DNA of 64,000 nucleotides from the NCBI GenBank assembly GCA_965655095.1, contig OZ296649.1, positions 148,924,001 to 148,988,000 of the forward strand, written 5' to 3'. Both the position numbers and the translations under genes were made by a program. Positions 1-64,000 of the stretch are shown here, one piece after another. This DNA comes from Haplodiscus bocki (lineage: Eukaryota). The notes below the pieces were generated by a model, which saw only the letters and a list, made by a program, of their open reading frames with translations, did no database searches and was not told the origin of the DNA. The first letter of the stretch is position 1; the number at the start of each line of letters is the position of its first letter.

Positions 1-262
1 GTTTAGTCTTAGTATTGTATACATAAATTTTAGTCGTTTTTTGTATATGAGAGGGAACATTGTTAAGCTAAGACAGTAGTTGCCTGAGCTCTGATAAAAC
101 AAATCACCACGCGGTTTATTGTAGTCCACGTCATGTGGATTTGTACTACAATCATCAAGTCGATTAAGGTTAAACCGGCGTACGTTAAGACGTTCTCGAC
201 AAAAATATTTAATTGCCAACATCTTGTTAATTTGGTCTTGATTGACAGTGTGAGTCTGATCT

Positions 263-1237
263 TCAAGAGGTTCGTCGTTCAGGAGAGGAAACTGGAGAGC
301 TAAGAAGAGCTGGAGTATGATAGTCTTGAAAAGGATTTAAAAAGGTAGCAGTTCCACGAGGAGTGCAAGTAGATGGATCAAAATTGAATTTTAGGCTTGC
401 ACAAACAAACGAGGCAGGTGAGGTTCTATAGGTTATATCTGAGCAGAAAAGTAGAAAGGGACGAACATATAATCTTTTAAAACAAACGCGTATGGAGAAC
501 TGAATTTCTAAATTAGGTTTATAAAGGATGGCAATTTCCTTAGTCTTCTTCGCGGGACTAAGACTTAAAGAGCGATTTATATTAACAATGCCATCGGATT
601 CAAGAGTGCTATCAAGATAAAATCCAGTAGAAAGAAAATTAAAGGACTGTGCGCTTTGATGGGTATTTCGAAAGTTCTGGAGAGAGGGAGGTAATTCATG
701 TGATGAATTTAAACTGAAACATTGAATGTGACGTTCGAGACAAGTAGTCGTATCCAAAGATGTATGCTCAAGAGATGTAGGATTAATTAAATTATGGATT
801 GGACGAGGAGAAAGGTCAGTAGTTGACAATAATGCAATATTTAATTTACGAGACGGGTTAGTAATGGGTGTAGAAGGTGAACGAGAGGTAAGTGATGTAG
901 TAGATTGGCGAGGAATGAACATAGTTTGTGAGTTTGTTAGTTGTGTTAAATTACTTGGAGACATTACAATTATAGTTCCTCTGATAGAGGAAAAAGTACG
1001 AAAAAACTTAGTACTTCCAGTGTTATTGAAATCATCGTCAGATAAAGTTATGGCATCATAAGAAAGGATTATGGTATCGTTAAATTCGTTTCCTGGGAGA
1101 ATATCGGGGGGTGGTCTGCTTGTTAAAATACTCTGGTTATGATATAGAGAAGCAATTTTTGAAAAGAATAAAAAAGTACCTTTGTGAGATGAAACGTGAA
1201 GAAGAGGTTTGAATTTCGTTGTTTGAAGGCTGAAAGA
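263..1237 (-). CDS. Accessory ORF between pol and env, 324-codon open frame (first ATG at 964 gives 233 aa), unknown function, copy 1
   Basis: The 233-aa ORF in the track extends stop-free upstream (SFSLQTTKFKPLLHVSSHKGTFLFFSKIASLYHNQSIL...ILSYDAITLSDDDF...FFRTFSSIRGTIIV-M) to a TGA at 1240-1238. A 975-nt open frame is unlikely by chance in AT-rich DNA. Expression is unknown. Confidence 0.5.
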   Translation of the reverse strand, partial: SFSLQTTKFKPLLHVSSHKGTFLFFSKIASLYHNQSILTSRPPPDILPGNEFNDTIILSYDAITLSDDDFNNTGSTKFFRTFSSIRGTIIVMSPSNLTQLTNSQTMFIPRQSTTSLTSRSPSTPITNPSRKLNIALLSTTDLSPRPIHNLINPTSLEHTSLDTTTCLERHIQCFSLNSSHELPPSLQNFRNTHQSAQSFNFLSTGFYLDSTLESDGIVNINRSLSLSPAKKTKEIAILYKPNLEIQFSIRVCFKRLYVRPFLLFCSDITYRTSPASFVCASLKFNFDPSTCTPRGTATFLNPFQDYHTPALLSSPVSSPERRTS

Positions 1238-1467
1238 TCAGAGGAGTTGAAAATTGGAGAGAGTGGTATCTATGAAATTTAAAGAGTCGGTTAATTATTT
1301 TGTATTTTTTAGTAAAATACCGATATGGAATTTGTTCAAAAATTAGAGAGACCGGTTACTTGAACGAAATCTAGTAACCTGGCAAAGAAGAAATGAACGG
1401 TTGAAGAGATGCATCTTGATGAGTTTGTTAATTTTCATATAACTGTGAGATAGAATCTTTAAATGTT

Positions 1468-1604
1468 AAGAAGCAGGAAGAGATATTTTTGTTGTTCGTC
1501 AAGTATCAACAAGAGATATTTTGTTGTTTGTTAAGTAGCAGCAAGAGAGCTTCTGTTATTTGTCAATGGTAGCAAGAGAGCTTTTGTTGATTTTAAGTAC
1601 CAGC
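1468..1604. repeat. Internal minisatellite, 4 degenerate copies of ~30-33 bp plus a partial (consensus ~AAGTAGCAGCAAGAGA(G/T)(C/A)TTTTGTTGTTTGTC); present in every monomer
   Basis: aagaagcaggaagagatatttttgttgttcgtc / aagtatcaacaagagatattttgttgtttgtt / aagtagcagcaagagagcttctgttatttgtc / aatggtagcaagagagcttttgttgatttt / aagtaccagc. Confidence 0.85.
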
Positions 1605-2127
1605 TGAATGAGTCGAAGGTAAGCGATGAATGAAGAGAAGAAATTATTGAGCTAAACTATTTTGCAGTGGAAAAACTAATGAGTGGTTGAGGACTTCGTA
1701 TCATGTAATTTTGTTGGCTAGCAGCGAGTTTGACTTGGGAGGTAACATAACGTTCTAGAAAGTTGTTTTGAATTCCGAAGCGTATATCGATTATAAAATG
1801 CCGAAGATCGAGTTCAAAGAGTATCTATCGAAAACAACAATGTTCGTACCGGTGCAATCCCAATGCTCGGTTGGTAACTCCGTCAAAAAACGATTTGATA
1901 GGTAGGCGAGTTTCACAAGAGAGAAAAATGTAGGTTCTAAGAAACTGTTTGGATTTTTGAATAGTTTATTAGTCTTTCAAAATGTCGGAGAATGAAGTCA
2001 AAACATCTACAAAACTGAAAGTTTAATTTGTTTTGATAGGCGGTGTAGTTATGAACAGACAAAGGGATTATTTGGAAGGATAATAAATTTGAAAAACAGA
2101 GCCTGTCTAAACTGATTTGAGCTATTT

Positions 2128-2650
2128 TTATCCCGAGTGAAAATAATATTTAGATGGAGGTATATGGGTGCGGTAGTCTTTGACAGGTTGTCGTCGAAGA
2201 CGGCGGGTTGTTCGGGATAGATAATATCCGGAAGTTTGGGAAGATGATGCGCTTACTGGAGGCGCTGTTGGTGTTATGGTATCAGTTTGATTGGTATTTG
2301 CTTGATCATTCAGCGTAGTAGGCGGTTGTTGAGAATTATCAAAGATTAATGGAGACGAAGTGTCGTCATCAGTGGAATTTATCGAGGTTTGCTGCCTGTC
2401 AGTCAAAAAGAAATCTGGTGTAGTCTCGTTCCCACAATCTTCTAGCGAATGGTAAGCTAATCGCTCGGGTCCATATATTTTACCGGCTGGGTTAAACGAG
2501 GATATGGTTATATGTCGCTTAAAAAAACCGTTTTATATTGTTGGAAAAGTTATTCTAAATGGGGGACAACGGGATAAAATGGGATCAAATGGTTTCGGTG
2601 TGCGAAATAAACATTTCCTTGATGTGACAGTACCTGATATTTCACATTTT
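2128..2650 (-). pseudogene. Pol/integrase C-terminal tail fragment (end of a GPY/F-type module plus a low-complexity S/T/P/D tail); a counterpart is present in every copy
   Basis: Manual translation gives NVKYQVLSHQGNVYFAHRNHLIPFYP...HITISSFNPAG...STDDDTSS...PTAPP...RTTRRLRRQPVKDYRTHIPPSK-stop. The N-V-x-Y-[QE]-[VLI]...H-R-N-H-L-x-P-[FY] pattern is typical of Gypsy integrase C-termini. It is interrupted by an in-frame TAA (E*L) in copies 1-17 and by homopolymer frameshifts. Confidence 0.72.
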
Positions 2651-2664
2651 ACTCGACGCATTGT

Positions 2665-3293
2665 ATTTGTAGAACCGTCTGGAATCCATGATTATTATTG
2701 TGATTGAGGGCTGTACACCCATACACCATAAAAATCTTGATCCAATGGGGTCGCTTGCATGGAACTTTGAATACGAATGAGATAATTTTGCTGTCCTGAA
2801 TCAGTTAAGAAAGCAATAGTTTGAGGAGATTCCATGGTTCGGTTAGACCGTGGACCGGAAAGTTCCAAGAGAAAGCTGACATGACTCTGATAGCCATACC
2901 TAGTAACAGCATGATACCTAACCATTGTCCTCGGATAGTAACTTTGTCGATCACGTTAATGTTTAGTCTTAGTATTGTATACATAAATTTTAGTCGTTTT
3001 TTGTATATGAGAGGGAACGTTGTTAAGCTAAGACAGTAGTTGCCTTAGCTCTGATAAAACAAATCACCACGCGGTTTATTGTAGGCCACGTCATGTGGAT
3101 TTGTACTACAATCATCAAGTCGATTAAGGTTAAACCGGCGTACGTTAAGACGTTCTCGACAAAAAAATTTAATTGCCAATATGTTGTTAATTTGGTCTTG
3201 ATTGACAGTGTGAGTTTGATCTTCAAGAGGTTCGTCGTTCAGGAGAGGAAACTGGAGAGCTAAGAAGAGCTGGAGTATGATAGTCTTGAAAAG
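2665..3293 (-). pseudogene. 5' fragment (~200 codons) of an Env-like viral fusion glycoprotein; a counterpart is present in every copy
   Basis: Consensus across copies: M(F/L)xIxILQLFLALQFP(HILS)LLNDEPLED...ILAIHYYCRERLNVRRFNLNRLDDCSTNP...VDLFIRAKATTVLAYQCSLSYTKTTKIY...*xDRQSYYPxTMVRYHAVTRxxCQSHVSFLLELSG..NRT...GVWVYSPQS..SWIPD. It has a hydrophobic signal peptide, spaced cysteines and an NRT sequon, and lies downstream of pol. It contains stops and frameshifts and is truncated at the monomer junction. Confidence 0.65.
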
Positions 3294-4197
3294 GATTAAA
3301 AAAGGTAGCAGTTCCACGAGGAGTGCAAGTAGATGGATCAAAATTGAATTTTAGGCTTGCACAAACAAACGAGGCAGGTGAGGTTCTATAGGTTATATCT
3401 GAGCAGAAAAGTGGAAAGGGACGAACATATAATCTTTTAAAACAAACGCGTATGGAGAACTGAATTTCTAAATTAGGTTTATAAAGGATGGCAATTTCCT
3501 TAGTCTTTTTCGCGGGACTAAGACTTAAAGAGCGATTTATATTAACAATGCCATCGGATTCAAGAGTGCTATCAAGATAAAATCCAGTAGAAAGAAAATT
3601 AAAGGACTGTGCGCTTTGATGGGTATTTCGAAAGTTCTGGAGAGAGGGAGGTAATTCATGTGATGAATTTAAACTGAAACATTGAATGTGACGTTCGAGA
3701 CAAGTAGTCGTATCCAAAGATGTATGCTCAAGAGATGTAGGATTAATTAAATTATGGATTGGACGAGGAGAAAGGTCAGTAGTTGACAATAATGCAATAT
3801 TTAATTTACGAGACGGGTTAGTAATGGGTGTAGAAGGTGAACGAGAGGTAAGTGATGTAGTAGATTGGCGAGGAATGAACATAGTTTGTGAGTTTGTTAG
3901 TTGTGTTAAATTACTTGGAGACATTACAATTATAGTTCCTCTGATAGAGGAAAAAGTACGAAAAAACTTAGTACTTCCAGTGTTATTGAAATCATCGTCA
4001 GATAAAGTTATGGCATCATAAGAAAGGATTATGGTATCGTTAAATTCGTTTCCTGGGAGAATATCGGGGGGTGGTCTGCTTGTTAAAATACTCTGGTTAT
4101 GATATAGAGAAGCAATTTTTGAAAAGAATAAAAAAGTACCTTTGTGAGATGAAACGTGAAGAAGAGGTTTGAATTTCGTTGTTTGAAGGCTGAAAGA
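3223..4197 (-). CDS. Accessory ORF, open frame, copy 2
   Basis: Near-identical to copy 1; ORF track 3223..3924 plus the open upstream extension. Confidence 0.5.
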   Translation of the reverse strand, partial: SFSLQTTKFKPLLHVSSHKGTFLFFSKIASLYHNQSILTSRPPPDILPGNEFNDTIILSYDAITLSDDDFNNTGSTKFFRTFSSIRGTIIVMSPSNLTQLTNSQTMFIPRQSTTSLTSRSPSTPITNPSRKLNIALLSTTDLSPRPIHNLINPTSLEHTSLDTTTCLERHIQCFSLNSSHELPPSLQNFRNTHQSAQSFNFLSTGFYLDSTLESDGIVNINRSLSLSPAKKTKEIAILYKPNLEIQFSIRVCFKRLYVRPFPLFCSDITYRTSPASFVCASLKFNFDPSTCTPRGTATFFNPFQDYHTPALLSSPVSSPERRTS

Positions 4198-6179
4198 TCA
4201 GCGGAGTTGAAAATTGGAGAGAGTGGTATCTATGAAATTTAAAGAGTCGGTTAATTATTTTGTATTTTTTAGTAAAATACCGATATGGAAAGTGTTCAAA
4301 AATTAGAGAGACCGGTTACTTGAACGAAATCTAGTAACCTGGCAAAGAAGAAATGAACGGTTGAAGAGATGCATCTTGATGAGTTTGTTAATTTTCATAT
4401 AACTGTGAGATAGAATCTTTAAATGTTAAGAAGCAGGAAGAGATATTTTTGTTGTTCGTCAAGTATCAACAAGAGATATTTTGTTGTTTGTTAAGTAGCA
4501 GCAAGAGAGCTTCTGTTATTTGTCAATGGTAGCAAGAGAGCTTTTGTTGATTTTAAGTACCAGCTGAATGAGTCGAAGGTAAGCGATGAATGAAGAGAAG
4601 AAATTATTGAGCTAAACTATTTTGCAGTGGAAAAACTAATGAGTGGTTGAGGACTTCGTATCATGGAATTTTGTTGGCTAGCAGCGAGTTTGACTTGGGA
4701 GGTAACTTAACGTTCTAGAAAGTTGTTTTGAATTCCGAAGCGTATATTGGTTATATAATGCCGAAGATCGAGTTCAAAGAGTATCTATCGAAAACAACAA
4801 TATTCGTACCGGTGCAATCCCAACGCTCGGTTAGTAACTCCGTCAAAAAACGATCTGATTCGTAGGCGAATTTCATAAGAGAGATAAATGTAGGTTCTAA
4901 GAAACTGTTTGGATTTTTGAATAGTTCATTAGTCTTTCAAAATCTCGGAAAACGAAGTCAAAACAATTACAAAATTGAAAGTTTAAATTGTTTTGATATG
5001 CGGTGTAGTTATGAACAGACAAAGGGCTTAATTGGAAGGATAATAACTTGGAAAAACAGAGGCTGTCTGAACTGATTTGAGCTATTTTTGTCCCGAGTGA
5101 AAATAATATTTAGAGGAGGTATATGGGTCCGGTAGTCTTTGACAGGTCGTCGAAGACGGCGGGTTGTTCGGGATTCAGAATATACGGAAGTTTGGGAAGA
5201 TGTTGCGCCTAGTGGAGGCGCTGTTGGTGTTATGATATCAGTTTGAATTGTATTTGCTTGATCATTCAGCGTAGTAGGCGGTTGTTGAGAATTATCAAAG
5301 ATTAATTGAGACGAAGTGTCGTTATCAGTGGAATTTGTCGAGGTTTGGTGCCTGTCAGTCAAAAAGAAATCTGGTGTAGTCTCGTTGCCAGAATCTTCTA
5401 GCGAATCGCAAGGTTATCGCTCGGGTGCACATATTTCACCGGCCGGGTTAAACGAGGATATGGTTATATGTCGCTTAAAAGAAACCGTTTTATATTGTTG
5501 GAAAAGTTATTCTAAATGGGGGACAACGGGATAAAATGGGATCAAATGGTTTCGGAGTGCGAACAAAACATTTCCTTGATGTGACAGTAACTGATATTTA
5601 ACATTTTACTCGACGCATTCTATTTGTAGAACCATCTGGAATCCATGATTATTAATGTGATTGAGGGCTGTAGTCCCATACACCATAAAAATCTTGATCC
5701 AATGGGGTCGCTTGCATGGAACTTTGAATACGAATGAGATAATTTTGCTGTCCTGAATCAGTTAAGAAAACAAGAGTTTGAGGAGATTCCATGGTTCGGT
5801 TAGACCATGGACCGGAAAGTTCCAAGAGAAAGCTGACATGACTCTGACAGTCATACCTAGTAACAGCATGATACCTAACCATTGTCCTCGGATAGTAACT
5901 TTGTCGATCACGTTAATGTTTAGTCTTAGTATTGTATACATAAATTTTAGTCGTTTTTTGTATATGAGAGGGAACATTGTTAAGCTAAGACAGTAGTTGC
6001 CTTAGCTCTGATAAAACAAATCACCACGCGGTTTATTGTAGGCCACGTCATGTGGATTTGTACTACAATCATCAAGTCGATTAAGGTTAAACCGGCGTAC
6101 GTTAAGACGTTCTCGACAAAAAAATTTAATTGCCAACATGTTGTTAATTTGGTCTTGATTGACAGTGTGAGTCTGATCT

Positions 6180-7154
6180 TCAAGAGGTTCGTCGTTCAGG
6201 AGAGGAAACTGGAGAGCTAAGAAGAGCTGGAGTATGATAGTCTTGAAAAGGATTTAAAAAGGTAGCAGTTCCACGAGGAGTGCAAGTAGATGGATCAAAA
6301 TTGAATTTTAGGCTTGCACAAACAAACGAGGCAGGTGAGGTTCTATAGGTTATATCTGAGCAGAAAAGTAGAAAGGGACGAACATATAATCTTTTAAAAC
6401 AAACGCGTATGGAGAACTGAATTTCTAAATTAGGTTTATAAAGGATGGCAATTTCCTTAGTCTTCTTCGCGGGACTAAGACTTAAAGAGCGATTTATATT
6501 AACAATGCCATCGGATTCAAGAGTGCTATCAAGATAAAATCCAGTAGAAAGAAAATTAAAGGACTGTGCGCTTTGATGGGTATTTCGAAAGTTCTGGAGA
6601 GAGGGAGGTAATTCATGTGATGAATTTAAACTGAAACATTGAATGTGACGTTCGAGACAAGTAGTCGTATCCAAAGATGTATGCTCAAGAGATGTAGGAT
6701 TAATTAAATTATGGATTGGACGAGGAGAAAGGTCAGTAGTTGACAATAATGCAATATTTAATTTACGAGACGGGTTAGTAATGGGTGTAGAAGGTGAACG
6801 AGAGGTAAGTGATGTAGTAGATTGGCGAGGAATGAACATAGTTTGTGAGTTTGTTAGTTGTGTTAAATTACTTGGAGACATTACAATTATAGTTCCTCTG
6901 ATAGAGGAAAAAGTACGAAAAAACTTAGTACTTCCAGTGTTATTGAAATCATCGTCAGATAAAGTTATGGCATCATAAGAAAGGATTATGGTATCGTTAA
7001 ATTCGTTTCCTGGGAGAATATCGGGGGGTGGTCTGCTTGTTAAAATACTCTGGTTATGATATAGAGAAGCAATTTTTGAAAAGAATAAAAAAGTACCTTT
7101 GTGAGATGAAACGTGAAGAAGAGGTTTGAATTTCGTTGTTTGAAGGCTGAAAGA
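6180..7154 (-). CDS. Accessory ORF, open frame, copy 3
   Basis: Near-identical to copy 1; ORF track 6180..6881 plus the open upstream extension. Confidence 0.5.
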   Translation of the reverse strand, partial: SFSLQTTKFKPLLHVSSHKGTFLFFSKIASLYHNQSILTSRPPPDILPGNEFNDTIILSYDAITLSDDDFNNTGSTKFFRTFSSIRGTIIVMSPSNLTQLTNSQTMFIPRQSTTSLTSRSPSTPITNPSRKLNIALLSTTDLSPRPIHNLINPTSLEHTSLDTTTCLERHIQCFSLNSSHELPPSLQNFRNTHQSAQSFNFLSTGFYLDSTLESDGIVNINRSLSLSPAKKTKEIAILYKPNLEIQFSIRVCFKRLYVRPFLLFCSDITYRTSPASFVCASLKFNFDPSTCTPRGTATFLNPFQDYHTPALLSSPVSSPERRTS

Positions 7155-9137: not shown

Positions 9138-10111
9138 TCAAGAGGTTCGTCGTTCAGGAGAGGAAACTGGAGAGCTAAGAAGAGCTGGAGTATGATAGTC
9201 TTGAAAAGGATTTAAAAAGGTAGCAGTTCCACGAGGAGTGCAAGTAGATGGATCAAAATTGAATTTTAGGCTTGCACAAACAAACGAGGCAGGTGAGGTT
9301 CTATAGGTTATATCTGAGCAGAAAAGTGGAAAGGGACGAACATATAATCTTTTAAAACAAACGCGTATGGAGAACTGAATTTCTAAATTAGGTTTATAAA
9401 GGATGGCAATTTCCTTAGTCTTTTTCGCGGGACTAAGACTTAAAGAGCGATTTATATTAACAATGCCATCGGATTCAAGAGTGCTATCAAGATAAAATCC
9501 AGTAGAAAGAAAATTAAAGGACTGTGCGCTTTGATGGGTATTTCGAAAGTTCTGGAGAGAGGGAGGTAATTCATGTGATGAATTTAAACTGAAACATTGA
9601 ATGTGACGTTCGAGACAAGTAGTCGTATCCAAAGATGTATGCTCAAGAGATGTAGGATTAATTAAATTATGGATTGGACGAGGAGAAAGGTCAGTAGTTG
9701 ACAATAATGCAATATTTAATTTACGAGACGGGTTAGTAATGGGTGTAGAAGGTGAACGAGAGGTAAGTGATGTAGTAGATTGGCGAGGAATGAACATAGT
9801 TTGTGAGTTTGTTAGTTGTGTTAAATACTTGGAGACATTACAATTATAGTTCCTCTGATAGAGGAAAAAGTACGAAAAAACTTAGTACTTCCAGTGTTAT
9901 TGAAATCATCGTCAGATAAAGTTATGGCATCATAAGAAAGGATTATGGTATCGTTAAATTCGTTTCCTGGGAGAATATCGGGGGGTGGTCTGCTTGTTAA
10001 AATACTCTGGTTATGATATAGAGAAGCAATTTTTGAAAAGAATAAAAAAGTACCTTTGTGAGATGAAACGTGAAGAAGAGGTTTGAATTTCGTTGTTTGA
10101 AGGCTGAAAGA
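9138..10111 (-). pseudogene. Accessory ORF, copy 4, broken by a 1-nt deletion; copies 5-22 are also disrupted
   Basis: ttaaatactt at ~9821-9830 replaces ttaaattactt, leaving 219 aa. Copies 5-22 have gtatttcaaaa (minus-strand TGA) where copies 1-4 have gtatttcgaaa (CGA). Confidence 0.6.
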
Positions 10112-46738: not shown

Positions 46739-49700
46739 GGGTGCATATATTTCACCGGCTGGGTTAAACGAGGATATGGGTATATGTCGCTTAAAAGAAA
46801 CCGTTTTATATTGTGGGAAAAGTTATTCTAAATGGGGGACAACGGGATAAAATGGGATCAAATGGTTTCGGTGTGCGAACAAAATATTTCCTTGATGTGA
46901 CAGTAACTGATATTTCACATTTTACTCGACGCATTGTATTTGTAGAACCGTCTGGAATCCATGATTATTATTGTGACTGAGGGCTGTAGACCCATACACC
47001 AAAAAAATCTTGATCCAATGGGGTCGCTTGCATGGAACTTTGAATACGAATGAGATAATTTTGATGTCCTGAACCAGTTAAGAAAACAATAGTTTGAGGA
47101 GATTGTATGGTTCGGTTAGACCGTGGACCGGAAAGTTCCAAGAGAAAGCTGACATGACTGTGATAGCCATTCCTAGTAACAGCATGATACCTAACCATTG
47201 TGCTCAGATAGTAACTTTGTCGATCTTGTTATTGGTTAGTCTTAGTATTGTAGACATAAATTTTAGTTGTTTTTGTACATGAGAGGGAACATTGGTAAGC
47301 TAAGACAGTAGTTGCCTTAGCTCTGATAAACAAATCAACGCACGGTTTATTGTAGGCAACGTCATGTGGATTTGTACTACAATCATCAAGTCGATTAAGG
47401 TTAAACCGGCGTACGTTAAGACGTTCTCGACAATAATAATGAATTGCCAATATGTTGTTAATTTGGTCTTGATTGACAGTGTGAGTTTGATCTTCAAGAG
47501 GTTCGCCGTTCAGGAGAGAAAACTGGAGAGCTGAGAAGAGCCGGAGTATGATAATCTTGAAAATGGATTTAAAAAGGTAGCAGTTCCACGAGGAGTGCAA
47601 ATAGATGGATCAAAAATAAATTTTGGGCTTGCACACACAAACGAGGCAGGTGAGGTTCTATAGGTTATATCTGAGCAGAAAAGTGGAAAGGGACGAACAT
47701 ATAATCTTTTAAAACAAACGCGTATGGAGAACTGAATTTCTAAATTGGGTTTATAAAGGATGGCAATTTCCTTAGTCTTTTTTGCGGGACTAAGACTTAA
47801 AGAGCGATTTATATTAACATTGCCATCGGATTCAAGAGTGTTATCAAGATAAAATCCAGTAGAAAGAAAATCAAAGGACTGTGCGTTTTGATGGGTATTT
47901 CAAAAGTTCTGGAGAGGGAGGTAACTCATGTGATGAAATTAAACTGAAACATTGAATGTGACGTTCGACACAAGTAGTCGTATCCAAAGATGTATGCTCA
48001 AGAGATGTTGGGCTAATTAAATTATGGATTGGACGAGGTTAAAGGTCAGTAGTTGACAATAATGCAATGTTTAAATTACGAGACGGGTTAGTATTGGGTG
48101 TAGAAGGTGAACGAGAGGTAAGTGGTGTATTAGATTGGCGAGGAGAGGAATCAACATAGTTTGTTAGTTGTGTTAAAATACTTGGAGACATTACAATTAT
48201 AGTTCCTCTGATAAGGGAAAAAGTACGAAAAAATTTAGTACTTCCAATAATGTTGAAATCATCGTCAGATAAAGTTATGGCATCATAAGAAAGGATTAGG
48301 GTATCGTTAAATTCGTTTCCTGGGAGAATATCGGGGAGTGGTCTACTTGGTAAAATATTCTGGTTACGATATGGTGAAGCAATTTTTGAAAAGATTAAAA
48401 AAAACTACCTATGTGAGATGAAACGTGAAGAAGAGGTTTGAATTTCGTTGTTTGAAGGCTGAAAAATCACAGGAGTTGAAAAATGCAGAGAGTGGTATCT
48501 ATGAAATTTAAAGAGTCGGTTGACTAGTTTGTACTTTTCAGTAAAATACCGATATGGAAAGTGTTCAAAAATTCGACAGACCGGTTACTTGAACGAAATC
48601 TAGTGACTTAGCAAAGAAGAAATGAACGGTTGAAGAGATGCATCTTGATGATTTTGTCAATTTTCAAATAACTGTGAGATAGAATCTTAAATGTTAAGAA
48701 GCAGGAAGAGATATTTTTGTTGTTCGTCAAGTATCAACAAGAGATATTTTGTTGTTTGTTAAATAGCAGCAAAAGAGCTTCTGTTGTTTGTCAAGTAGTA
48801 GCAAGAGATCTTTTGTTGATTTTAAGTAGCAGCTGAATGAGTCGAAGATTAGCGATGAATGAAGAGAAGAGAATATTCAGCTAAACTATTTTGCAGTGGA
48901 AAAACTAATGAGTGATTGAGGACTTCGTATCATGGAATTTTTTTGGCTAGCAGCGAGTTTGACTTGGGAGGTAACATAACGTTCTAGAAAGTTGTTTTGA
49001 ATTTCGAACCGAATATCGGTTATAAAATGTCGAGGATCGAGTTCAAAGAGTATCTATCGAAAACAACAATATTCGTACCGGTGCAATCCCAACGCTCGGT
49101 TGGTAACGTCAAAAAACGATCTGATTGGTAGGCGAATTTCATGAGAGATAAATGTAGGTTCTAAGAAACTGTTTGGATTTTTGAATAGTTTAGTCTTTCA
49201 AAATCTCGGAGAAAGAAGTCGAAACAACTACAAAATTGAAAGTTTAAATTGTTTTGATATGCGGTGTAGTTATGAACAGACAAAGGCATTAATTGGAAGG
49301 ATAATAAGTTTGAAAAACAGAGGCTGTCTGAACTGATTTGAGCTATTTCTCTCCCGAGTGAAAATAATATTTAGATGGAGTTGTATGGGTCCGGTAGTCT
49401 TTGACAGGTCGTCGAAGACGGCGGGTTGTTCAGGATTGGGAATATACGGAAGTTTGGGAAGATGTTGCGCCTAGTGGAGGCGCTGTTGGTGTTTTGGTAT
49501 CAGTTTGATTGGTATTTGCTTGATCATTCAGCGCAGTAGGCTGTTGTTGAGAATTATCAAAGATTAATGGAGACGAAGTGTCGTCATCAGGGGAATTTAT
49601 CGAGGTTTGGTGCCTGTCAGTCAAAAAGAAATCTGGTGTAGTCCAGTTGCCAGAATCTTCTAGCGAATCGTAAGGTAATCGCTCGGGTGCATATATTTCA

Positions 49701-50174
49701 CCGGCCGGGTTAAAGGAGGATATGGTTATATGTGGTTTGAAAAAAACCGTTTTATATTGTGGGAAAAGTTATTCTAAATGGGGGACAACGGGATAAAATG
49801 GGATCAAATGGTTTCGGTGTGCGAACAAAATATTTCCTTGATGTGACAGTAACTGATATTTCATATTTTACTCGACGCATTGTATTTGTAGAACCGTCTG
49901 GAATCCATGATTATTATTGTGATTGAGGGCTGTAGACCCATACACCATAAAAATCTTGATCCAATGGGGTGGCTTGCATGGAACTTTGAACACGAATGAG
50001 ATAATTTTGCTGTCCTAAATCAGTTAAGAAAACAATAGTTTGAGGAGATTCCATAGTTCGGTTAGATCGTGGACCGGAAAGTTCCAAGAGAAAGCTGACA
50101 TGACTCTGACAGCCAGTCTTAGTAACAGCATGATACCTAACCAGTGTGCTCGGATAGTAACTTTGTCGATCATG

Positions 50175-50510: not shown

Positions 50511-52996
50511 GGATTATTAAAGGTAGCACTTCCACGAGGAGTGCAAGTAGATGGATCAAAATTGAATTTTAGGCTTGAAAAAAACGAGGCAGGTGAGGTT
50601 CTACATGTTATATCTGGGCAGAAAAGTGGAATGGGATGAACATATATTCTTTTAAAACAAACGCGAATGGAGAACTGAATTTCTAAATTGGGTTCATAAA
50701 GGATAGCAATTTCCTCAGTCTTTTTTGCGGGACTAAGACTTAAAGAGCGATTTATATTAACAATGCCATCGGATTCAAGAGTGTTATCAAGACCAAATCC
50801 AGTAGAAAGAAAAATAAAGGACTGTGCGTTTTGATGGGTATTTCAAAAGCTCTGGAGAGAAGGAGGTAATTCATGTGATGAATTTAAACTGAAACATTGA
50901 ATGTGACGTTCGACACAAGTAGTCGTATCCAAAGATGTATGCTCAAGAGATGTAGGACTAAATAAATTATGGATTGGACTAGGAGAAAGGTCAGTAGTTG
51001 ACAATGATGCAAAATTTAAATTACGAGACGGGTTAGTATTGGGTAAAGAAGGTGAACGAGAGTTAAGAGGTGTATTAGGTTGGCGAGGAGTGGAATGAAC
51101 ATATTTGGTGAGTTTGTTAGTTGTGTTAAATTACTTGGAGACATTACAAATATAGTTCCTCTGATAAGGGAAAAAGTACGAAAAAAATTAGTACTTCCAG
51201 TAATATTGAAATCATCGTCAGATAAAGTTATGGCATCATAAGAAAGGATTATGGTATCGTTAAATTCGTTTCCTGGGAGAATATCGGGGAGTGGTCTACT
51301 TGGTAAAATATTCTGGTTACGATATGGTGAAGCAATTTTTGAAAAGATTAAAAAAACTACCTATGTGAGATGGAACGTGAAGAAGAGGTTTGAATTTCGT
51401 TGTTTGAGGGCTGAAAGATCACAGGAGTTGAAAATTGCAGAGAGAGGTATCTATGAAATTTAAAGAGTCGGTTGACTATTTTGTACTTTTCAGTAAAATA
51501 CCGATATGGAAAGTGTTCAAAAATTAGAGAGACCAGTCATTTGAACGAAATCTAGTAACTTAGCAAAGAAGAAATGAACGGTTGAAAAGAAATGACTTTG
51601 TTAATTTTCAAATAACTGAGAATTAGAATCTTTAAATGTTCAGAAGCAGCAAGAGAGATTTTTGTTGTTCTTCAAGTATCAACAAGAGATATTTTGTTGT
51701 TTGTTAATTAGCAGCAAGAGAGCTTCTGTTGTTTGTCAAGTAGTAGCGAGAGAGCTTTTGTTGATTTTAAGTACCAGCTGAATGAGTTGAAGATAAGCGA
51801 TGAATGAAGAGAAGAAATTATTCAGCTAAACTATTTTGCAGTGGAAAAACTAACGAGTGATTGAGGACTTCGTATGATGGAATTTTTTTGGCTAGCAGCG
51901 AGTTTGACTTGGGAGGTAACATAACGTTCTAGAAAGTTGTTTTGAATTCCGAAGCGTATATCGGTTATAAAATGTCGAGGATCGAGTTCAAAGAGTATCT
52001 ATCGAAAACAACAATATTCGTACCGGTGCAATCCCAACGCTCGGTTGGTAACTCCGTCAAAAAACGATCTGATTGGTAGGCGAATTTCACAAGAGAGATA
52101 AATGTATGTTCTACGAAACTGTTTGGATTTTTGAATAGTTTATTAGTCTTTCAAAATCTCGGAGAACGAAGTCAAAACAACTACAAAATTAAAAGTTTAT
52201 ATTGTTTTGATATGCGGTGTAGTTATGAACAGACAAAGACGGCGAGTTGTTCGGGATTGAGAATATACGGAAGTTTGGGAAGATGTTGCGCCTAGTTGAG
52301 GCGCTGTTGGTGTTATGGTATCAGTTTGATTGGTATTTGCTTGATCATTCAGCGTAGTGGGCGGTTGTTGAGATTTAGCAAAGATTAATGGAGACGAAGT
52401 GTCGTCATCAGGGGAATTTATCGAGGTTTGGTGCCTGTCAGTCGAAAAGAAATCTGGTGTAGTCTCGTTGCCAGAATCTTCTAGCGAATCGCAAGGTTAT
52501 CGCTCGGGTGCACATATTTCACCGGCCGGGTTAAAGGAGGATATGGTTATATGTGGCTTGAAAAAAAAACGTTTTATATTGTTGAAAAAGTTTTTCTATA
52601 TGGAGGACAACGGGACAAAAGGGGATCAAATGGTTTCGGTGTGCGAACAAAACATTTCCTTGATGTGACAGTAACTGATATTTCACATTTTACTCGACGC
52701 ATTGTATTTGTAGAACCGTCTGGAATCCATGATTATTATGGTGATTGAGGCCTGTAGACCCATACACCATAAAAATCTTGATCCAATGGGGTGGCTGGCA
52801 TGGAACTTTGAACACGAATGAGATAATTTTACTGTCCTAAATCAGTTAAGAAAACAATAGTTTGAGGAGATTCCATAGTTCGGTTAGATCGTGGACCGGA
52901 AAGTTCCAAGAGAAAGCTGACATGACTCTGACAGCCAGTCTTAGTAACAGCATGATACCTAACCAGTGTGCTCGGATAGTAACTTTGTCGATCATG

Positions 52997-55235: not shown

Positions 55236-55502
55236 TTATCGAGGTTTGGTGCCTGTCAGTCGAAAAAAACCTGGTGTAGTCTCGTTGCCAGAATTTTCTA
55301 GCGAATCGTAAGGTAATCGCTCGGGTGCATATAATTCACCGGCCGGGTTAAACGAGGATATGGTTATATGTGGCTGAAAAGAAACCGTTTTATATTGTTG
55401 AAAAAGTTTTTCTATATGGAGGACAGCGGGATAAAAGGGGATCAAATGGTTTCGGTGTGCGAACAAAACATTTCCTTGATGTGGCAGTATCTGATATTTC
55501 AC
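55236..55502 (-). pseudogene. Best-preserved 5' part of the integrase tail (copy 19)
   Basis: The ORF track reads KYQILPHQGNVLFAHRNHLIPFYPAVLHIEKLFQQYK...SGNETTPGFF without the internal stop found in copies 1-17. Confidence 0.7.
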
Positions 55503-56899
55503 ATTTTACTCGACGCATTGTATTTGTAGAACCGTCTGGAATCCATGATTATTATTGTGATTGAGGGCTGTAGACCCATACACCATAAAAATCTTGATCC
55601 AATGGGGTGGCTTGCATGGAACTTTGAATACGAATGAGATAATTTTGCTGTCCTAAATCAGTTAAGAAAACAATAGTTTGAGGAGATTCCATGGTTCGGT
55701 TAGATCGTGGACCGGATATTCCAAGAGAAAGCAGACATGACTCTGACAGCCAGTCTTAGTAACAGCATGATACCTAACCAGTGTGCTCGGATAGTAACTT
55801 TGTCGATCATGTCATTGGTTAGTCTTAGTATTGTAGACATAATTTTAGTTGTTTTTGTATATGAGAGGGAACATTGGTAAGCTAAGACAGTAGTTGCCTT
55901 AGCTCTGATAAACAAATCAACACGTGGTTTACTGTAGGCAACGTCATGTGGATTTGTACTACATTCATCAAGTCGATTAAGGTTAAACCGGCGTACGTTA
56001 AGACGTTCTCGACAATAATAATGAATTACCAATATGTTGTTAATTTGGTCTTGAATGACAGTGTGAGTTTGATCTTCAAGTAGATGGATCAAAATTGAAT
56101 TTTAGGCTTGAAAAAAAACGAGGCAGGTGAGGTTCTATATGTTATATCTGGGCAGAAAAGTGGAATGGGATGAACATATATTCTTTTAAAACAAACGCGA
56201 ATGGAGAACAGAATTTCTAAATTGGGTTTATAAAGGATGGCAATTTCCTTAGTCTTTTTTGCGGAACTAAGACTTAAAGAGCGATTTAAATTGACAATGC
56301 CATCGGATTCAAGAGTGTTATCAAGATAAAATCCAGTAGAAAGAAAATTTAAGGACTGTGCGTTTTGATGGGTATTTCAAAAGCTCTGGAGAGAGAGAGG
56401 TAAGTCATGTGATGAATTTAAACTGAAACATTGAATGTGACGTTCGATACAAGTAGTCGTATCCAAAGATGTATGCTCGAGAGATGTAGGACTAATTAAA
56501 TTATGGACTGAACGAGGAGAAAGGTCAGTAGTTGACATTAATGCAATATTTAAATTACGAGACGGGTTAGTTTTGGGTGTAGAAGGTGAACGAGAGTTAA
56601 GAGGTGTATTAGGTTGGCGAGGAGTGGAATGAACATATTTGGTGAGTTTGTTAGTTGTGTTAAATTACTTGGAGACATTACAATTATAGTTCCTCTGATA
56701 AGGGAAAAAGTAAGAAAACATTTAGTACTTCCAGTAATATTGAAATCATCGTCAGATAAAGTTATGGCATCATAAGAAAGGATTATGGTATCGTTAAATT
56801 CGTTTCCTGGGAGAATATCGGGGAGTGGTCTACTTGGTAAAATATTCTGGTTAAGATCTGGTGAAGCAATTTTTGAAAAGATTGAAAAAACTACCTATG

Positions 56900-59800
56900 T
56901 GAGATGAAACGTGAAGAAGAGGTTTGAATTTCGTTGTTTGAGGGCTGATAGATCACAGGAGTTGAAAATTGCAGAGAGTGGTATCTATGAAATTTGAAGA
57001 GTCGGTTGACTATTTTGTACTTTTCATAAAATACCAATATGGAAAGTGTTCAAAAATTAGAGAGACCAGTTATTTGAACGAAATCTAGTAACTTAGCAAA
57101 GAAGAAATGAACGGTTGAAGAGAAATGACTTTGTTAATTTTCAAATAACTGAGAATTAGAATCTTTAAATGTTCAGAAGCAGCAAGAGAGATTTTTGTTG
57201 TTCTTCAAGTATCAACAAGCGATATTCTGTTGTTTGTTGAACAGCAGCAAGAGAGCTTCTGTTGTTTGTCAAGTAGTAGCAAGAGAGCTTTTGTTGATTT
57301 TAAGTACCAGCTGAATGAGTCGAAGATCAGCGATGAATGAAGAGAAGAAATTATCCAGCTAAACTATTTTGCAGTGGAAAATGTAATGATTGGTTGAGGA
57401 CTTCGTATCATGGAATTTGTTGGCTAGCAGCGAGTTTGACTTGGGAGGTAACTTAACGTTCTAGAAAGTTGTTTTGAATTCCAAACCGTAAATTAGTTAA
57501 AAAATGTCGAGGATCGAGTTCAAAGAGTATCTATCGAAATCAATAGAAATCGTACCGGTGCAATCCCAACGCTCGGTTGGTAACTCCGTCAAAAAACGAT
57601 CTGATTGGTAGTCGAGTTTCACAAGAGGGATAAATGTATGTTCTACGAAACTGTTTGGATTTTTGAATAGTTTATTAGTCTTTCAAAAGGTCGGAGAACG
57701 AATTCAAAACATCTACCGAATTGAAATATTAATTTGTTTTGACATGCGGTGTGGTTTTGAATAAACAGAGGGATTATTTGGAAGGATAATATTTCTGAAA
57801 AGCAGAGCCTGCTCAAACTGATTTGAGCTATTTTTATCAGGAGTGAAAATGAATTTTAGATGGAGGTATATGGGTGCCGTAGTCGTTGAAAGGTTGTCGT
57901 CGAAGACGGCAAGTTGTTCGGGATTGAGAAAATACGGAAGATTGGGAACATGTGGCGCCTAGTGGAGGCAGTGTTGGTGTTATGTTATCAGTTTGATTGG
58001 TATTTGCTTGATCATTCAGCGTAGTGGGCGGTTGTTGAGAATTATCAAAGATTAATGTAGACGAAGTGTCGTCCTCGGGGAAGTTATCGAGGTGTGGTGC
58101 CTGTCAGTTAAAAAGAAATCTGGTGTAGTCTCGTTGGCAGATACTTCTAGCGAAACGTAAGGTAATCGCGCGGGTGAATATATTTCATCGGCCGGGTTAA
58201 ACGAGGATATGGTTATAAGTGGCTTAAAAGAAACCGTTTTATATTGTTGAAAAGGTTTTTCTAAATGGGGGACAACGGGACAAAATGGTTTCGGTGTGCG
58301 AACAAAACATTTGCTTGATGTGACAGTAATTCATATTTCACATTTTATTCGACGCATTGTATTTGTAGCACCGTCTGGAATCCATCACTTATAATGTGAT
58401 TGAGGGCTGTAGACCCATACACCATGATAATCTTCATCCAACGCTGTAGCTTGCATGGGACCTTGAATACAAAGGAGATTATTTTGTTGTCCTAAAACAG
58501 TTAAGAAAGCAATAGGTTGAGGAGATTCCATGGTTCGGTTAGATCGTGACCGGAAAGTTCCATGAGAAAGCGGACATGACTCTGACAGGCATTCCTAGTA
58601 ACAGCATGATACGTAACCATTGTGCTCGGATAGTAACTTTGTCGATCATGTTAATGGTTAGTCTTAGTATTGTATACATAAAGTTTAGTTGTTTTTGTAT
58701 ATGAGAGGGAACATTGGTAAGCTAAGACAGTAGTTTTTTAACTCTGATAAACAAATCAACACCTGCTTTATTGTTGGCAAGTCAGGTGGATTTGTATTAC
58801 AATCATCAACTAGATTAAGTTTAAGCCGGCGGCGTACGTTAAAAGTTCTCGACAATGATCATGAATTGCCAAAAAGTCGTTAATTTGGTCTTGATTGACA
58901 GTGTGAGTTTGATCTTCAAGAGGTTCGCCGTTGAGGAGAGAGAGAATGTGAGGGAACTGGAGAGCTAAGAAGAGCTGGAGTATGACAATTTTGAGCAAGG
59001 ATTATAAAAGGTAGCAGTTCCACGAGGACTGCAAGTAGATGGATCAAAATCAAATTTCAGGCTTGAACAAACGAGGCAGGTGAGGTTCTATAGGTTATAC
59101 CTGGGCAGAAAAGTGGAACGGCACGAACATATAATCTTTCAAAACAAACGCGTATGGAGAACTGAATTTCTAAATTGGGTTTATAAAGGATGGCAATTTC
59201 CTTAGTCTTCTTTGCGGGACTAAGACTTAAAGAGCGATTTATATTAACAATGCCATCGGATTCAAGAGTGTTATCAAAACAAAATCCAGTAGAAAGAAAA
59301 TTAAAGGACTGTGCGTTTTGATGGGTATTTCAAAAGTTCTGGAGAGAGGGTGTAATTCAGGCGATGAATTAAACTGAAACATTGAATGTGACGTTCGACA
59401 CAGGGAGTCCTATCTAAAGATGTATGCTCAAAAGCTGTAGGGCTAATTAAATTATGGATTGGACGAGGAGAAAGGTCAGTAGTTGACAGCAACGCAATAT
59501 TTATATTCCGAAACGGGTTAGTTTTGGGTGTAGAAGGTGAACGAGATTTAAGAGCTGTATTAGATTGGCGAGGAGTGGAATGATTATATTTGGTGAGTTT
59601 GTTAGTTGTGTACTTGGAGACATTACAATTATAGTTCCTCTGATAAGGGAAAAAGTACGAAAAAATTTAGTACTTCCAGTAATATTGAAATCATCGTCAG
59701 ATAAAGTTATGGCATCATAAGAAAGGATTATGGTATCGTTAAATTCGTTTCCTGGGAGAATATCGGGGAGTGGTCTATTTGGTAAAAAATTCTGGTTAAG

Positions 59801-62800
59801 ATATGGTGAAGCAATTTTTGAAAAGAATAAAAAAGTACCTTTGTGAGATGAAACGTGAAGAAGAGGTTTGAATTTCGTTGTTCGAAGGCTGAAAGAACAC
59901 AGGAGTTGAAAAATGCAGAGAGTGGTAACTATGAAAAATTAGAGAGTCGGTTGACTATTTTGTACTTTTCAGTAAAATACCGATATGGAAAGTGTTCAAA
60001 AATTAGAGAGACCAGTTATTTGAACGAAATCTAGTAACGTAGCAAACAAGAAATGAACGGTTGAAGAGAAATGACTTCAATTTTCAAATAACTGAAAATT
60101 AGAATCTTTAAATGTTCAGAAGCAGCAAGAGAGATTTTTGTTGTTCGTCAAGTATCAACAAGAGATATTTTGTTGTTTGTTAAATAGCAGCAAGAGAGCT
60201 TCTGTTGTTTGTCAAGTAGTAGCAAGAGAGCTTTTGTTGATTTTAAGTACTAGCTGAATGAGTCGAAGATCAGCAATGAATGAAGAGAAGAAAATATTCA
60301 GTTAAACTATTTTGCAGTGGAAAATGTAATGATTGGTTGAGGACTTCGTATCATGGAATTTGTTGGCTAGCAGCGAGTTTGACTTGGGAGGTAAACTAAC
60401 GTTCTAGAAAGTTGTTTTGAATTCCGAAGCGTAAATTGGTTAAAAAATGTCGAGGATCGAGTTCAAAGAGTATCTATCGAAATCAACAAAATTCGTACCG
60501 GTGCAATCCCAATGCTCGGTTGGTAACTCCGTCAAAAAACGATCTGATTGGTAGGCGAGTTTCACAAGAGAGATAAATGTATGTTCTACGAAACTGTTTG
60601 GATTTTTGAATAGTTTATTAGTCTTTCAAAAGGTCGGAGAACGATTTCAAAAAATCTACCGAATTGAAAAATTAATTCGTTTTGACATGCGGTGTGGTTT
60701 TGAATAGACAGAGGGATTATTTGGAAGGATAATATTTCTGAAAAGCAGAGCCTGCTTAAACTGATTTGAGCTATTTTTATCAGGAGTGAAAATAAATTTT
60801 AGATGGAGGTATATGAGTGCCGTAGTCTTTGAAATGTTGTCGTCGAAGACGGCAAGTTGTTCGGGATTGAGATAATACGGAAGATTGGGAAGATGTGGCG
60901 CCTAGTGGAGGCACTGTTGGTGTTATGTTATCAGTTTGATTGGTATTTGCTTGATCATTCAGCGTATTGGGCGGTTGTTGAGAATTATCAAAGATTAATG
61001 TAGACGAAGTGTCGTCCTCGGGGAAGTTATCGAGGTGTGGTGCCTGTCAGTTAAAAAGAAATCTGGTGTAGTCTCGTTGGCAGATACTTCTAGCGAAACG
61101 TAAGATGATCGCTCGGGTGAATATATTTCACCGGCCGGGTTAAACGAGGATATGGTTATAAGTGGCTTAAAAGAAACCGTTTTATATTGTTGAAAAAGTT
61201 TTTCTAAATGGGGGACAACGGGATAAAATGGTTTCGGTGTGCGAACAAAGCATTTGCTTGATGTGACAGTAACTCATATTTCACATTTTATTCGACGCAT
61301 TGTATTTGTAGCACCGTCTGGAATCCATCACTTATAATGTGATTGAGGGCTGTAGACCCATACACCATGAGAATCTTAATCCAACGCTGTAGCTTGCATG
61401 GGACCTTGAATGCAAAGGAGATTATTTTGTTGTCCTAAAACAGTTAAGAAAGCAATAGGTTGAGGAGATTCCATGGTTCGGTTAGATCGTGATCGGAAAA
61501 TTCCATGAGAAAGCGGACATGACTCTGACAGGCATTCCTAGTAACAGCATGATACGTAACCATTGTGCTCAGATAGTAACTTTGTCGATCATTTTATTGG
61601 TTAGTCTTAGTATTGTAGACATAAATTTTAGTTGTTTTTGTATATGAGAGGGAACATTGGTAAGCTAAGACAGTAGTTGCCTTAGCTCTGATAAACAAAT
61701 CAACACGTGGTTTATTGTAGGCAGCGTCATGTGGATTTGTACTACAATCATCAAGTCGATTAAGGTTAAACCGGCGTACGTTGAGACGTTCTCGACAAAA
61801 ATAATGAATTGCCAATATGTTGTTTATTTCGTCTTGATTGACAGTGTGAGTTTGATCTTCAAGAGGTTCGTCGTTGAGGAGAGAGAGAATGTGAGGGAAC
61901 TGGAGAGCTAAGAAGAGCTGGAGTATGACAATTTTGAGCAAGGATTATGAAAGGTAGCAGTTCCACGAGGACTGCAAGTAGATGGATCAAAATCAAATTT
62001 CAGGCTTGAACAAACGAGGCAGGTGAGGTTCTATAGGTTATACCTGGGCAGAAAAGTGGAACGGCACGAACATATAAACTTTCAAAACAAACGCGTATGG
62101 AGAACTGAATTTCTAAATTGGGTTTATAAAGGATGGCAATTTCCTTAGTCTTCTTTGCGGGACTAAGACTTAAAGAGCGATTTATATTAACAATGCCATC
62201 GGATTCAAGAGTGTTATCAAAACAAAATCCAGTAGAAAGAAAATTAAAGGACTGTGCGTTTTGATGGGTATTTCAAAAGTTCTGGAGAGAGGGTGTAATT
62301 CAGGCGATGAATTAAACTGAAACATTGAATGTGACGTTCGACACAGGGAGTCCTATCTAAAGATGTATGCTCAAAAGCTGTAGGGCTAATTAAATTATGG
62401 ATTGGACGAGGAGAAAGGTCAGTAGTTGACAGCAACGCAATATTTATATTCCGAAACGGGTTAGTTTTGGGTGTAGAAGGTGAACGAGATTTAAGAGCTG
62501 TATTAGATTGGCGAGGAGTGGAATGATTATATTTGGTGAGTTTGTTAGTTGTGTACTTGGAGACATTACAATTATAGTTCCTCTGATAAGGGAAAAAGTA
62601 CGAAAAAATTTAGTACTTCCAGTAATATTGAAATCATTGTCAGATAAAGTTATGGCATCATAAGAAAGGATTATGGTATCGTTAAATTCGTTTCCTGGGA
62701 GAATATCGGGGAGTGGTCTATTTGGTAAAAAATTCTGGTTAAGATATGGTGAAGCAATTTTTGAAAAGAATAAAAAAGTACCTTTGTGAGATGAAACGTG

Positions 62801-64000
62801 AAGAAGAGGTTTGAATTTCGTTGTTCGAAGGCTGAAAGAACACAGGAGTTGAAAAATGCAGAGAGTGGTAACTATGAAAAATTAGAGAGTCGGTTGACTA
62901 TTTTGTACTTTTCAGTAAAATACCGATATGGAAAGTGTTCAAAAATTAGAGAGACCAGTTATTTGAACGAAATCTAGTAACGTAGCAAACAAATGAACGG
63001 TTGAAGAGAAATGACTTCAATTTTCAAATAACTGAAAATTAGAATCTTTAAATGTTCAGAAGCAGCAAGAGAGATTTTTGTTGTTCGTCAAGTATCAACA
63101 AGAAATATTTTGTTGTTTGTTAAATAGCAGCAAGAGAGCTTCTGTTGTTTGTCAATTAGTAGCAAGAGAGCTTTTGTTGATTTTAAGTACCAGCTGAATG
63201 AGTCGAAGATCAGCAATGAATGAAGAGAAGAAATTATTCAGTTAAACTATTTTGCAGTGGAAAATGTAATGATTGGTTGAGGACTTCGTATCATGGAATT
63301 TGTTGGCTAGCAGCGAGTTTGACTTGGGAGGTAAACTAACGTTCTAGAAAGTTGTTTTGAATTCCGAAGCGTAAATTGGTTTAAAAATGTCGAGGATCGA
63401 GTTCAAAGAGTATCTATCGAAATCAACAAAATTCGTACCGGTGCAATCCCAATGCTCGGTTGGTAACTCCGTCAAAAAACGATCTGATTGGTAGGCGAGT
63501 TTCACAAGAGAGATAAATGTATGTTCTACGAAACTGTTTGGATTTTTGAATAGTTTATTAGTCTTTCAAAAGGTCGGAGAACGATTTCAAAAAATCTACC
63601 GAATTGAAAAATTAATTCGTTTTGACATGCGGTGTGGTTTTGAATAGACAGAGGGATTATTTGGAAGGATAATATTTCTGAAAAGCAGAGCCTGCTTAAA
63701 CTGATTTGAGCTATTTTTATCAGGAGTGAAAATATATTTTAGATGGAGGTATATGAGTGCCGTAGTCTTTGAAATGTTGTCGTCGAAGACGGCAAGTTGT
63801 TCGGGATTGAGATAATACGGAAGATTGGGAAGATGTGGCGCCTAGTGGAGGCACTGTTGGTGTTATGTTATCAGTTTGATTGGTATTTGCTTGATCATTC
63901 AGCGTAGTGGGCGGTTGTTGAGAATTATCAAAGATTAATGTAGACGAAGTGTCGTCCTCGGGGAAGTTATCGAGGTGTGGTGCCTGTCAGTTAAAAAGAA
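56900..64000. repeat. Divergent subfamily block (tail of copy 20, copies 21-22)
   Basis: Many private substitutions and indels: gagagagaatgtgaggg, tttatcaggagtg, ccaacgctgtagc, ggaccttgaat, cagggagtcctatc. The left boundary is approximate. Confidence 0.8.
61594..61941 (-). pseudogene. 115-codon Env-like N-terminal frame with the longer signal region (TTG at the start position), copy 22
   Basis: LKIVILQLFLALQFPHILSLLNDEPLED... carries 4 extra residues (HILS) that are absent from copies 1-19. Confidence 0.5.

Follow-up and report, generated by a model that had tools for sequence, protein, structure and literature searches.

The 64,000-nt stretch of DNA analysed here (the window; positions 148,924,001 to 148,988,000 of contig OZ296649.1, Haplodiscus bocki, assembly GCA_965655095.1) is occupied over its whole length by a single tandem array, with BLASTN of one mid-window copy of ~3 kb returning a same-strand match for each ~2.95 kb from 1 to 64,000. 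Split at a common anchor, the window holds 22 units (21 whole and one partial, ~21.7 unit lengths), and 18 of the 21 whole units measure 2,937-2,964 bp, the other three being shorter at 2,815-2,839 bp. Copies 18 and 19, counted from the left, have a 135-bp deletion in common and copy 20 carries one of 116 bp. The alignment of array copies contains no insertion longer than 12 bp and no foreign insert is seen across the 64 kb. Pairwise identity between copies runs from 90.1 to 99.9%, the latter value being reached by the pairs 9/10 and 13/14; GC content is ~37% and the plus strand shows a steady skew of G over C. The window open reading frames (ORFs) scanned against Pfam, in sets of 15, 3 and 7, give no match to reverse transcriptase, RNase H, protease, integrase-core or Gag families, ARAGORN detects no tRNA genes in the window, and Rfam returns nothing worth noting for bases 1-9,000. 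Two database proteins, P0007 and P0008, belong to a contig equal in length (643,134 bp) to that of the ORF-X proteins (see below) of the window itself but are only 86-88% identical to the best-matching window copy and thus represent further array copies beyond the window, so that the array, unbroken at both window edges, probably continues past each of them. An earlier sequence-only reading of this DNA had described about 22 head-to-tail copies of 2.95 kb extending over more than 64 kb, with no insertions and no catalytic retroelement domains, and each of these points is borne out, with the addition of the 116-135-bp deletions in three copies that it did not mention.

Read on the minus strand, each unit consists of an integrase-tail-like frame (~170 codons), a 0.9-kb spacer with a minisatellite, an ORF designated ORF-X (~324 codons) and an envelope gene (env), of which the unit keeps the first ~210 codons. 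The plus-strand ORFs, for example 732-1061, are rejected as shadows, since the homologues align on the minus strand. The join between env and the pol-like frame of the next unit is the defining feature of the monomer and lies at an identical position in 21 of the 21 copies covering it. When the env frame of one copy is read through its stops and used as a query (P0006), 25 of its 84 homologues align up to residue 195, and 16 of these 25 alignments stop at residues 208-214 of the read-through frame, with 12 of the 16 homologues extending for 10-86 residues of their own. These stops place the cut in env at about 49,884 and the start of the pol-like frame by 49,864. Three homologues align past the junction, two of them weakly; the third, P0011, is 88% identical and crosses the junction, and is therefore an array-type copy. 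The proposal of a single founding event made in the sequence-only reading agrees with this one env/pol-like junction in all covering copies. In the three units, out of 22, that were examined for long inverted or direct repeats, only the 32-bp array of the spacer is found.

The identity of the env part is the best established of the assignments. P0006 retrieves 84 homologues (P0009-P0092) among 1.84 billion representatives, with a best E of 2.5e-52; those of them that are unlike array copies are mostly 22-67% identical in protein sequence, with one short match at 74%. The Pfam family PF24664 (Monjiviricetes_fusion, a fusion glycoprotein) is matched by 8 of 48 proteins scanned, comprising 46 of the 84 homologues together with P0007 and P0008, and two of the eight are above the cut-off; the chuvirus-like glycoprotein signature is thus present in the env homologues. 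Three of 15 window ORFs match the same family weakly, below the cut-off (E 8.7e-4 to 0.021). A structural model of the homologue P0026 (31% identical, E 7e-22) finds herpesvirus glycoprotein B (gB) in 31 of the 33 listed rows from the PDB and named glycoproteins in 23 of the 50 listed rows from viral structures. In VIA, the top five of 50 listed rows are gB or rhabdovirus G, both class III, at Z 3.2-4.5, which lies under the reliability range of the tool. Sequence searches of the PDB with P0006 and with profile A1 give 0 matches, a word-index search of the env ORF against longer proteins gives 0 of 111 candidates, and the ESM Atlas is uninformative for this ORF (best score 0.85, unnamed). Because the homologues, the PF24664 matches and the gB/class III fold matches agree, the fold being weak but consistent, the frame is well supported as the N-terminal ~210 codons of a gB-type, chuvirus-like class III fusogen, present with its signal-like start in this N-terminal part only. 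All 84 relatives are short (47-380 aa) and many are visibly decayed, hinting at a heavy load of dead copies of the family in the source genomes. This class of env is known from many invertebrate Ty3/Gypsy elements (PMC13524379) and also occurs in mosquito Pao elements (PMC7642597).

ORF-X lies directly upstream of env, the two frames sharing about 70 bp where ORF-X ends and env begins. Three non-self homologues (P0003-P0005) are 46-61% identical to it, and P0004 aligns in a single frame over ~190 residues. In three further unrelated database proteins, P0047, P0057 and P0059, ORF-X sequence runs into env, from which it follows that the adjacency is older than the array. Pfam finds nothing significant, and no Gag family, in ORF-X and its three homologues, and a single-sequence fold of ORF-X reaches a pLDDT (predicted local distance difference test score) of 40. 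It is possible that ORF-X represents an accessory gene, not described before, that precedes the gB-type env. In P0003, a piece resembling the 3′ part of ORF-X, in another frame, precedes a piece resembling its 5′ part (window 47,746-48,356), which may reflect a related locus elsewhere that is permuted or tandem with a different junction. Selection on ORF-X was considered on the grounds that it is open over 324 codons in copies 1-3, and in these only, and was rejected, as these copies are ~99.7% identical over ORF-X and the ratio of non-synonymous to synonymous polymorphism (pN/pS) is 0.91.

The pol-like tail is known in its full length from P0007 and P0008, which are natural copies of it. With the first 60 residues of P0007, four of the six ESM Atlas rows shown belong to families of integrase C-terminal domains (IN_DBD_C at 0.84, MLVIN_C, DUF5641 and Integrase_p58_C at 0.76), the DUF5641 row being a cluster with 24% DUF5641 at a score of 0.80; scores below 0.9 count as a lead only. 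The families named span retroviruses, Gypsy and BEL alike, and the unit carries no catalytic domain. A word-index search with the tail recovers only two array-type copies among 27 candidates, and a scan of prokaryotic genomes with P0007 gives 137 pattern matches, of which 0 are confirmed. A short motif in the tail appears to resemble a Gypsy-type integrase ending. The segment past the junction may be a pol 3′ end, as a lead only, and the parent would most likely be a Ty3/Gypsy "ancient errantivirus" of an invertebrate. For the three coding labels given in the sequence-only reading, the env 5′ part and the accessory ORF hold, the former having come through the env-homology search that could have overturned it, and the pol-3′ label stands only as far as the Atlas lead goes, with no Pfam or PDB match behind it.

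The spacer may be decayed coding sequence, intergenic sequence or a hidden long terminal repeat (LTR). Its 32-bp minisatellite occurs once in each of the 22 units with 3.5-4.4 repeats, and this near-constant repeat number indicates that it is older than the array and has not undergone an expansion of its own. The spacer also contains a recurring pair of stop-free frames, 61-73 codons long (60,589-60,798 and 63,347-63,565 on the minus strand, and equivalents), which may be remnants of another ORF; neither has a Pfam match.

Table 1. Features of the array in window coordinates.
Feature	Position	Strand	Remarks
Macrosatellite array, ~21.7 units of ~2.95 kb, open at both ends	1..64000	-	Element sense is minus, set by homology
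Unit taken as representative, from one junction to the next (pol-like tail, then spacer, ORF-X and 5′ part of env)	46935..49884	-	Homology and copy alignment
First ~210 codons of env: signal-like hydrophobic start, then N-terminal ectodomain (class III fusogen, gB-type / chuvirus-like)	46935..47567	-	Truncated, in-frame stops
env 5′ part of the neighbouring copy, search query P0006	49881..50513	-	Read with X at three stops
ORF-X, representative copy, serine/threonine/proline (S/T/P)-rich, frameshifted	47497..48464	-	Homology and copy alignment
ORF-X open over 324 codons in the three leftmost copies	263..1237, 3223..4197, 6180..7154	-	ORF list, homologues
Spacer, ~0.9 kb (decayed coding, intergenic or hidden LTR)	48465..49351	-	Primer-binding-site and polypurine-tract scans
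32-bp minisatellite, 4.4 units, 72-80% matches	48692..48833	.	Tandem-repeat scan
pol-3′-like frame (~170 codons): short integrase C-terminal-like stretch, acidic S/T/P-rich linker, basic end	49352..49864	-	Broken in most copies
env/pol-like junction	49865..49884	-	Ends of homologue alignments; copy alignment, 21 covering copies
env-side junction positions, copies left to right (part 1)	2662, 5621, 8579, 11534, 14488, 17435, 20381	-	Approximate
env-side junction positions (part 2)	23335, 26285, 29235, 32182, 35131, 38081, 41030	-	Approximate
env-side junction positions (part 3)	43981, 46935, 49881, 52703, 55519, 58358, 61301	-	Approximate
135-bp deletion site, copy 18 (loses end of pol-like tail)	52230..52245	.	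Equivalent in copy 19 near 55,055
116-bp deletion site, copy 20 (end of ORF-X / start of env)	56070..56085	.	Copy alignment

Variation among the copies records how the array has changed since its founding. The pN/pS ratio is 0.91 for ORF-X (151 non-synonymous and 51 synonymous variants, spread 67/69/66 over the codon positions), 1.32 for env and 1.24 for the pol-like tail, with values of 0.83 and 2.97 for the two spacer frames on small counts, and the copies evolve neutrally, without selection on protein. An env stop common to 21 of 21 copies shows that the founder was defective before the array formed; two further stops are found in 18 and 19 of the 21. Neighbouring copies average 97.1% identity, and the mean drops to about 91% for copies separated by 18-21 units (Spearman -0.61, the pairs not being independent), and the tree of copies groups mostly neighbours. 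Copies 1, 6, 12 and 15 have a mosaic structure: over phase ~250-1,230 copy 1 shows no difference from copies 2-4, but it differs from the nearest copy by 2.4-4.4% beyond phase ~1,720, and short tracts of copies 12 and 15 match copies 16 and 19, respectively. This combination of identity decay, neighbour grouping and mosaicism points to unequal exchange and gene conversion. Amplification by unequal exchange had already been suggested in the sequence-only reading and is upheld here with gene conversion added; rolling-circle replication as the main amplifier, which it named as the alternative, fits poorly with copies that are mosaic and lose identity with distance.

Within the array, copy 5 finds its best match in copy 7 (97.5%) and copy 6 in copies 2-4 (96.8%; window 11,839-20,679 for copies 5-7), a pattern suggesting a two-unit or out-of-register exchange. 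Copies 20-22 (55,817-64,000) are the most divergent, at ~90-92% identity to the left-hand copies, and two copies of this group lack two stops that are otherwise shared. A 12-bp env stretch, missing in the others and apparently present in outside homologues, is retained by copies 21-22, which makes the right side look older and suggests that the array has its older edge there.

Taken together, the data are best read, at a probability of roughly two in three, as a neutral macrosatellite of a contiguous ~2.95-kb interior piece of an LTR retroelement with gag-pol, an accessory ORF and a gB-type env, likely of the Ty3/Gypsy class. The founding step would have involved an element with a stop already in env and one illegitimate event, whether break repair, a template switch or the return of an excised circle to the genome, which fused a site ~210 codons into env with one close to the integrase end and so gave the first tandem duplication. 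Unequal crossing-over and gene conversion, as the pattern of identities indicates, then expanded the array and partly homogenised it in local blocks, while the copies gathered the stops, frameshifts and deletions now seen, without selection on protein. The window does not contain an intact gag, pol and env between two LTRs, and the unit is a broken fragment that would derive from errantiviruses rather than a member of them. Lacking reverse transcriptase, integrase core and Gag, it is predicted to be unable to transpose by itself, and it would make no fusogen; the array most likely has no role beyond that of repeat DNA.

Several points weigh against this interpretation. On the protein side, P0006 itself has no Pfam match, the model of P0026 is poor (pLDDT 52) and none of its fold matches reaches E 0.001 or Z 5, and no full-length env is found among the 84 homologues, the longest being 380 aa. 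The pol-like tail has no Pfam match and, for P0007, no PDB match, and its Atlas scores (0.76-0.84) all lie in the range of a lead. The order pol, spacer, ORF-X is one that we infer for the parent. On the side of the LTR, a CA-NN-TGG sequence stands just before the minisatellite on the sense strand in 20 of 22 copies, and in 6 of 22 a run of 10-11 purines closes the pol tail, both of them weak hints of an LTR; many intact elements are without an assigned primer binding site (PBS) (PMC13524379), and elements of the order gag-env-pol with a gB-type env are known in Nematoda, Bryozoa and Platyhelminthes according to the same source.

These latter points belong to an unlikely alternative in which the unit is an internally deleted, non-autonomous element of the gag-env-pol type, arranged as LTR, ORF-X as a gag-like ORF1, env 5′ part, deletion, pol 3′ part and LTR, and the array shares an LTR hidden in the spacer. 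A single LTR per unit cannot appear as a direct repeat, and the spacer was therefore scanned for the marks of a PBS and of a polypurine tract (PPT). The geometry fits, with the purine run at the pol end followed after ~520 bp by the CA-NN-TGG site and then by tandem repeats, and the kb-scale retrotransposon satellites on record are mostly LTR-based. Three sense-strand TGG sites, each in at least three copies, occur in the spacer, but the best of them is 2 mismatches (by eye) from one singleton "others" entry among 189 errantivirus tRNA ends, and none of the 189 is closer. Likewise, purine runs of at least 10 bases are expected at 0.32 per unit by shuffling, and the observed run is absent in the three right-hand copies (20-22), has no TG after it and was lost from copies 18-19, which were duplicated nonetheless; ORF-X, for its part, has no Gag family match. 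The spacer scans thus give no convincing PBS and no conserved PPT, and the unit is likely LTR-less. The earlier statement that no LTR is recognisable is correct as an observation, short of proving absence in a unit where a lone LTR would be invisible as a repeat, and the search for an LTR, PBS or PPT has turned up the weak positional hints above and no good PBS or conserved PPT.

An addition to the neutral macrosatellite rather than a replacement for it, and a rather improbable one, is that selection maintains the array, either as centromeric chromatin or to supply small RNA against the parent family. The sequence speaks neither for nor against the centromeric, subtelomeric or small-RNA role raised in the sequence-only reading. 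Arrays derived from Athila, with 1.4-2.6-kb monomers, bind CENH3 in Rosa canina (PMC12222009; bioRxiv 10.64898/2026.09.17.752431), and the 64 kb of the window is free of insertion. Against this, the non-array homologues, at the identities given above, are too distant for small-RNA pairing unless a close parent is unsampled, and CpG dinucleotides show neither depletion (observed/expected 1.14) nor an excess of transitions (13/~204 sites vs 49/~878). The fuller proposition that an LTR-less piece of integrase tail, ORF-X and the 5′ third of env is used by the host as centromeric chromatin or as a high-copy source of small RNA against the env-bearing parent family, and also that the parent lineage, in which a further ORF separates pol from env, went undescribed in a survey of 1,512 errantiviruses, is similarly doubtful.

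A BEL/Pao parent bearing a chuvirus-like glycoprotein, of the Anakin type, with the origin otherwise as for the Ty3/Gypsy parent, is improbable. Chuvirus-like glycoproteins are common in Pao elements (PMC7642597), and one Atlas row, the DUF5641 cluster described above, points the same way, but P0007 and P0008 have no Pfam match to DUF5641 and the same type of env is also found beside Gypsy pol (PMC13524379). The look of the tail motif, which appears to be of Gypsy type, is a further point against it. That the array arose mainly from an excised circle, copied in a single burst of rolling-circle replication and put back as a ready multimer, is very improbable: the one identical junction in all copies is expected of a circle and of a duplication alike, and a single burst predicts equal distances between copies, contrary to the fall of identity with distance, the blocks and the mosaics. 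An excised circle may nevertheless have seeded the array without explaining its present state. An assembly artefact is hardly credible, as divergence to 10%, nested clades, diagnostic deletions held in common and mosaics are unlike assembler duplication or read error, with possible mis-counting confined to the 99.9% pairs, copies 9/10 and 13/14.

Set against known systems, kb-scale head-to-tail monomers in a long uninterrupted run, homologous to part of a transposable element through the env and ORF-X homologues (the pol part being a lead only) and locally homogenised without selection on the coding frames, place the array among transposon-derived macrosatellites. Such satellites, and the conversion of transposons into them, are already well documented. 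The cenLTR1-4 arrays of Rosa canina (PMC12222009) resemble it in being long and head-to-tail, with monomers of 1,425-2,596 bp that stem from a single Ty3/Gypsy family, but they are LTR-derived and bind CENH3, whereas the present unit contains env, accessory and pol-like coding pieces and no recognisable LTR. CRM1TR and CRM4TR of maize (PMC3648361) are likewise repeats of one retrotransposon with an illegitimate founding junction, non-allelic exchange and internal repeats in the monomer; they differ in deriving from the LTR and untranslated region of a plant element with no env. The contrast with the literature drawn in the sequence-only reading, that retrotransposon satellites usually come from LTRs or 3′ untranslated regions, was overstated, as reviews include satellites from gag and pol segments (PMC9659126, PMC12628747), such as rye E3900 (gag) and PROsat and HinfI (ORF2 of a long interspersed nuclear element), and one draws the conclusion that satellites can arise from any part of an element (PMC9659126). 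These share with the present array the turning of retroelement ORF DNA into satellite, but none is env-derived and the present unit spans three reading frames. The human D4Z4 (3.3 kb) and DXZ4 (3 kb) arrays (PMC8122249) are alike in unit size and array form, with unrelated sequence, and the present array has no ORF under selection.

Among the possible relatives of the parent, the HSV/gB-type errantiviruses, env-carrying Ty3/Gypsy elements (PMC13524379), have a gB-type chuvirus-like env with a signal-like start downstream of a pol-like frame, as here, but they are intact gag-pol-env elements, whereas the present unit is a tandem broken fragment with an extra ORF before env; the words "accessory" and "tandem" have 0 occurrences in the text of that paper, and acoels, a conceivable host lineage, have 0 in its text and supplements. 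Anakin (PMC7642597) also combines a chuvirus-like glycoprotein with an LTR retroelement and many defective copies, and differs in its BEL/Pao pol, "tandem" occurring 0 times in the text. A satellite monomer that contains env, or that is LTR-less or internal with three frames, was not found in searches of open-access full text, subscription papers and bioRxiv supplements being outside this scope.

With its env-containing, apparently LTR-less unit, the array takes a less usual form of the route from transposon to satellite. The array offers a readable case of satellite birth from the coding interior of an env-bearing retroelement, in which the founding junction, the common lesions and the tracts of exchange are all visible, and through it the early steps of satellite birth become testable. 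A family of env-bearing elements in which a further ORF precedes env is indicated as well.

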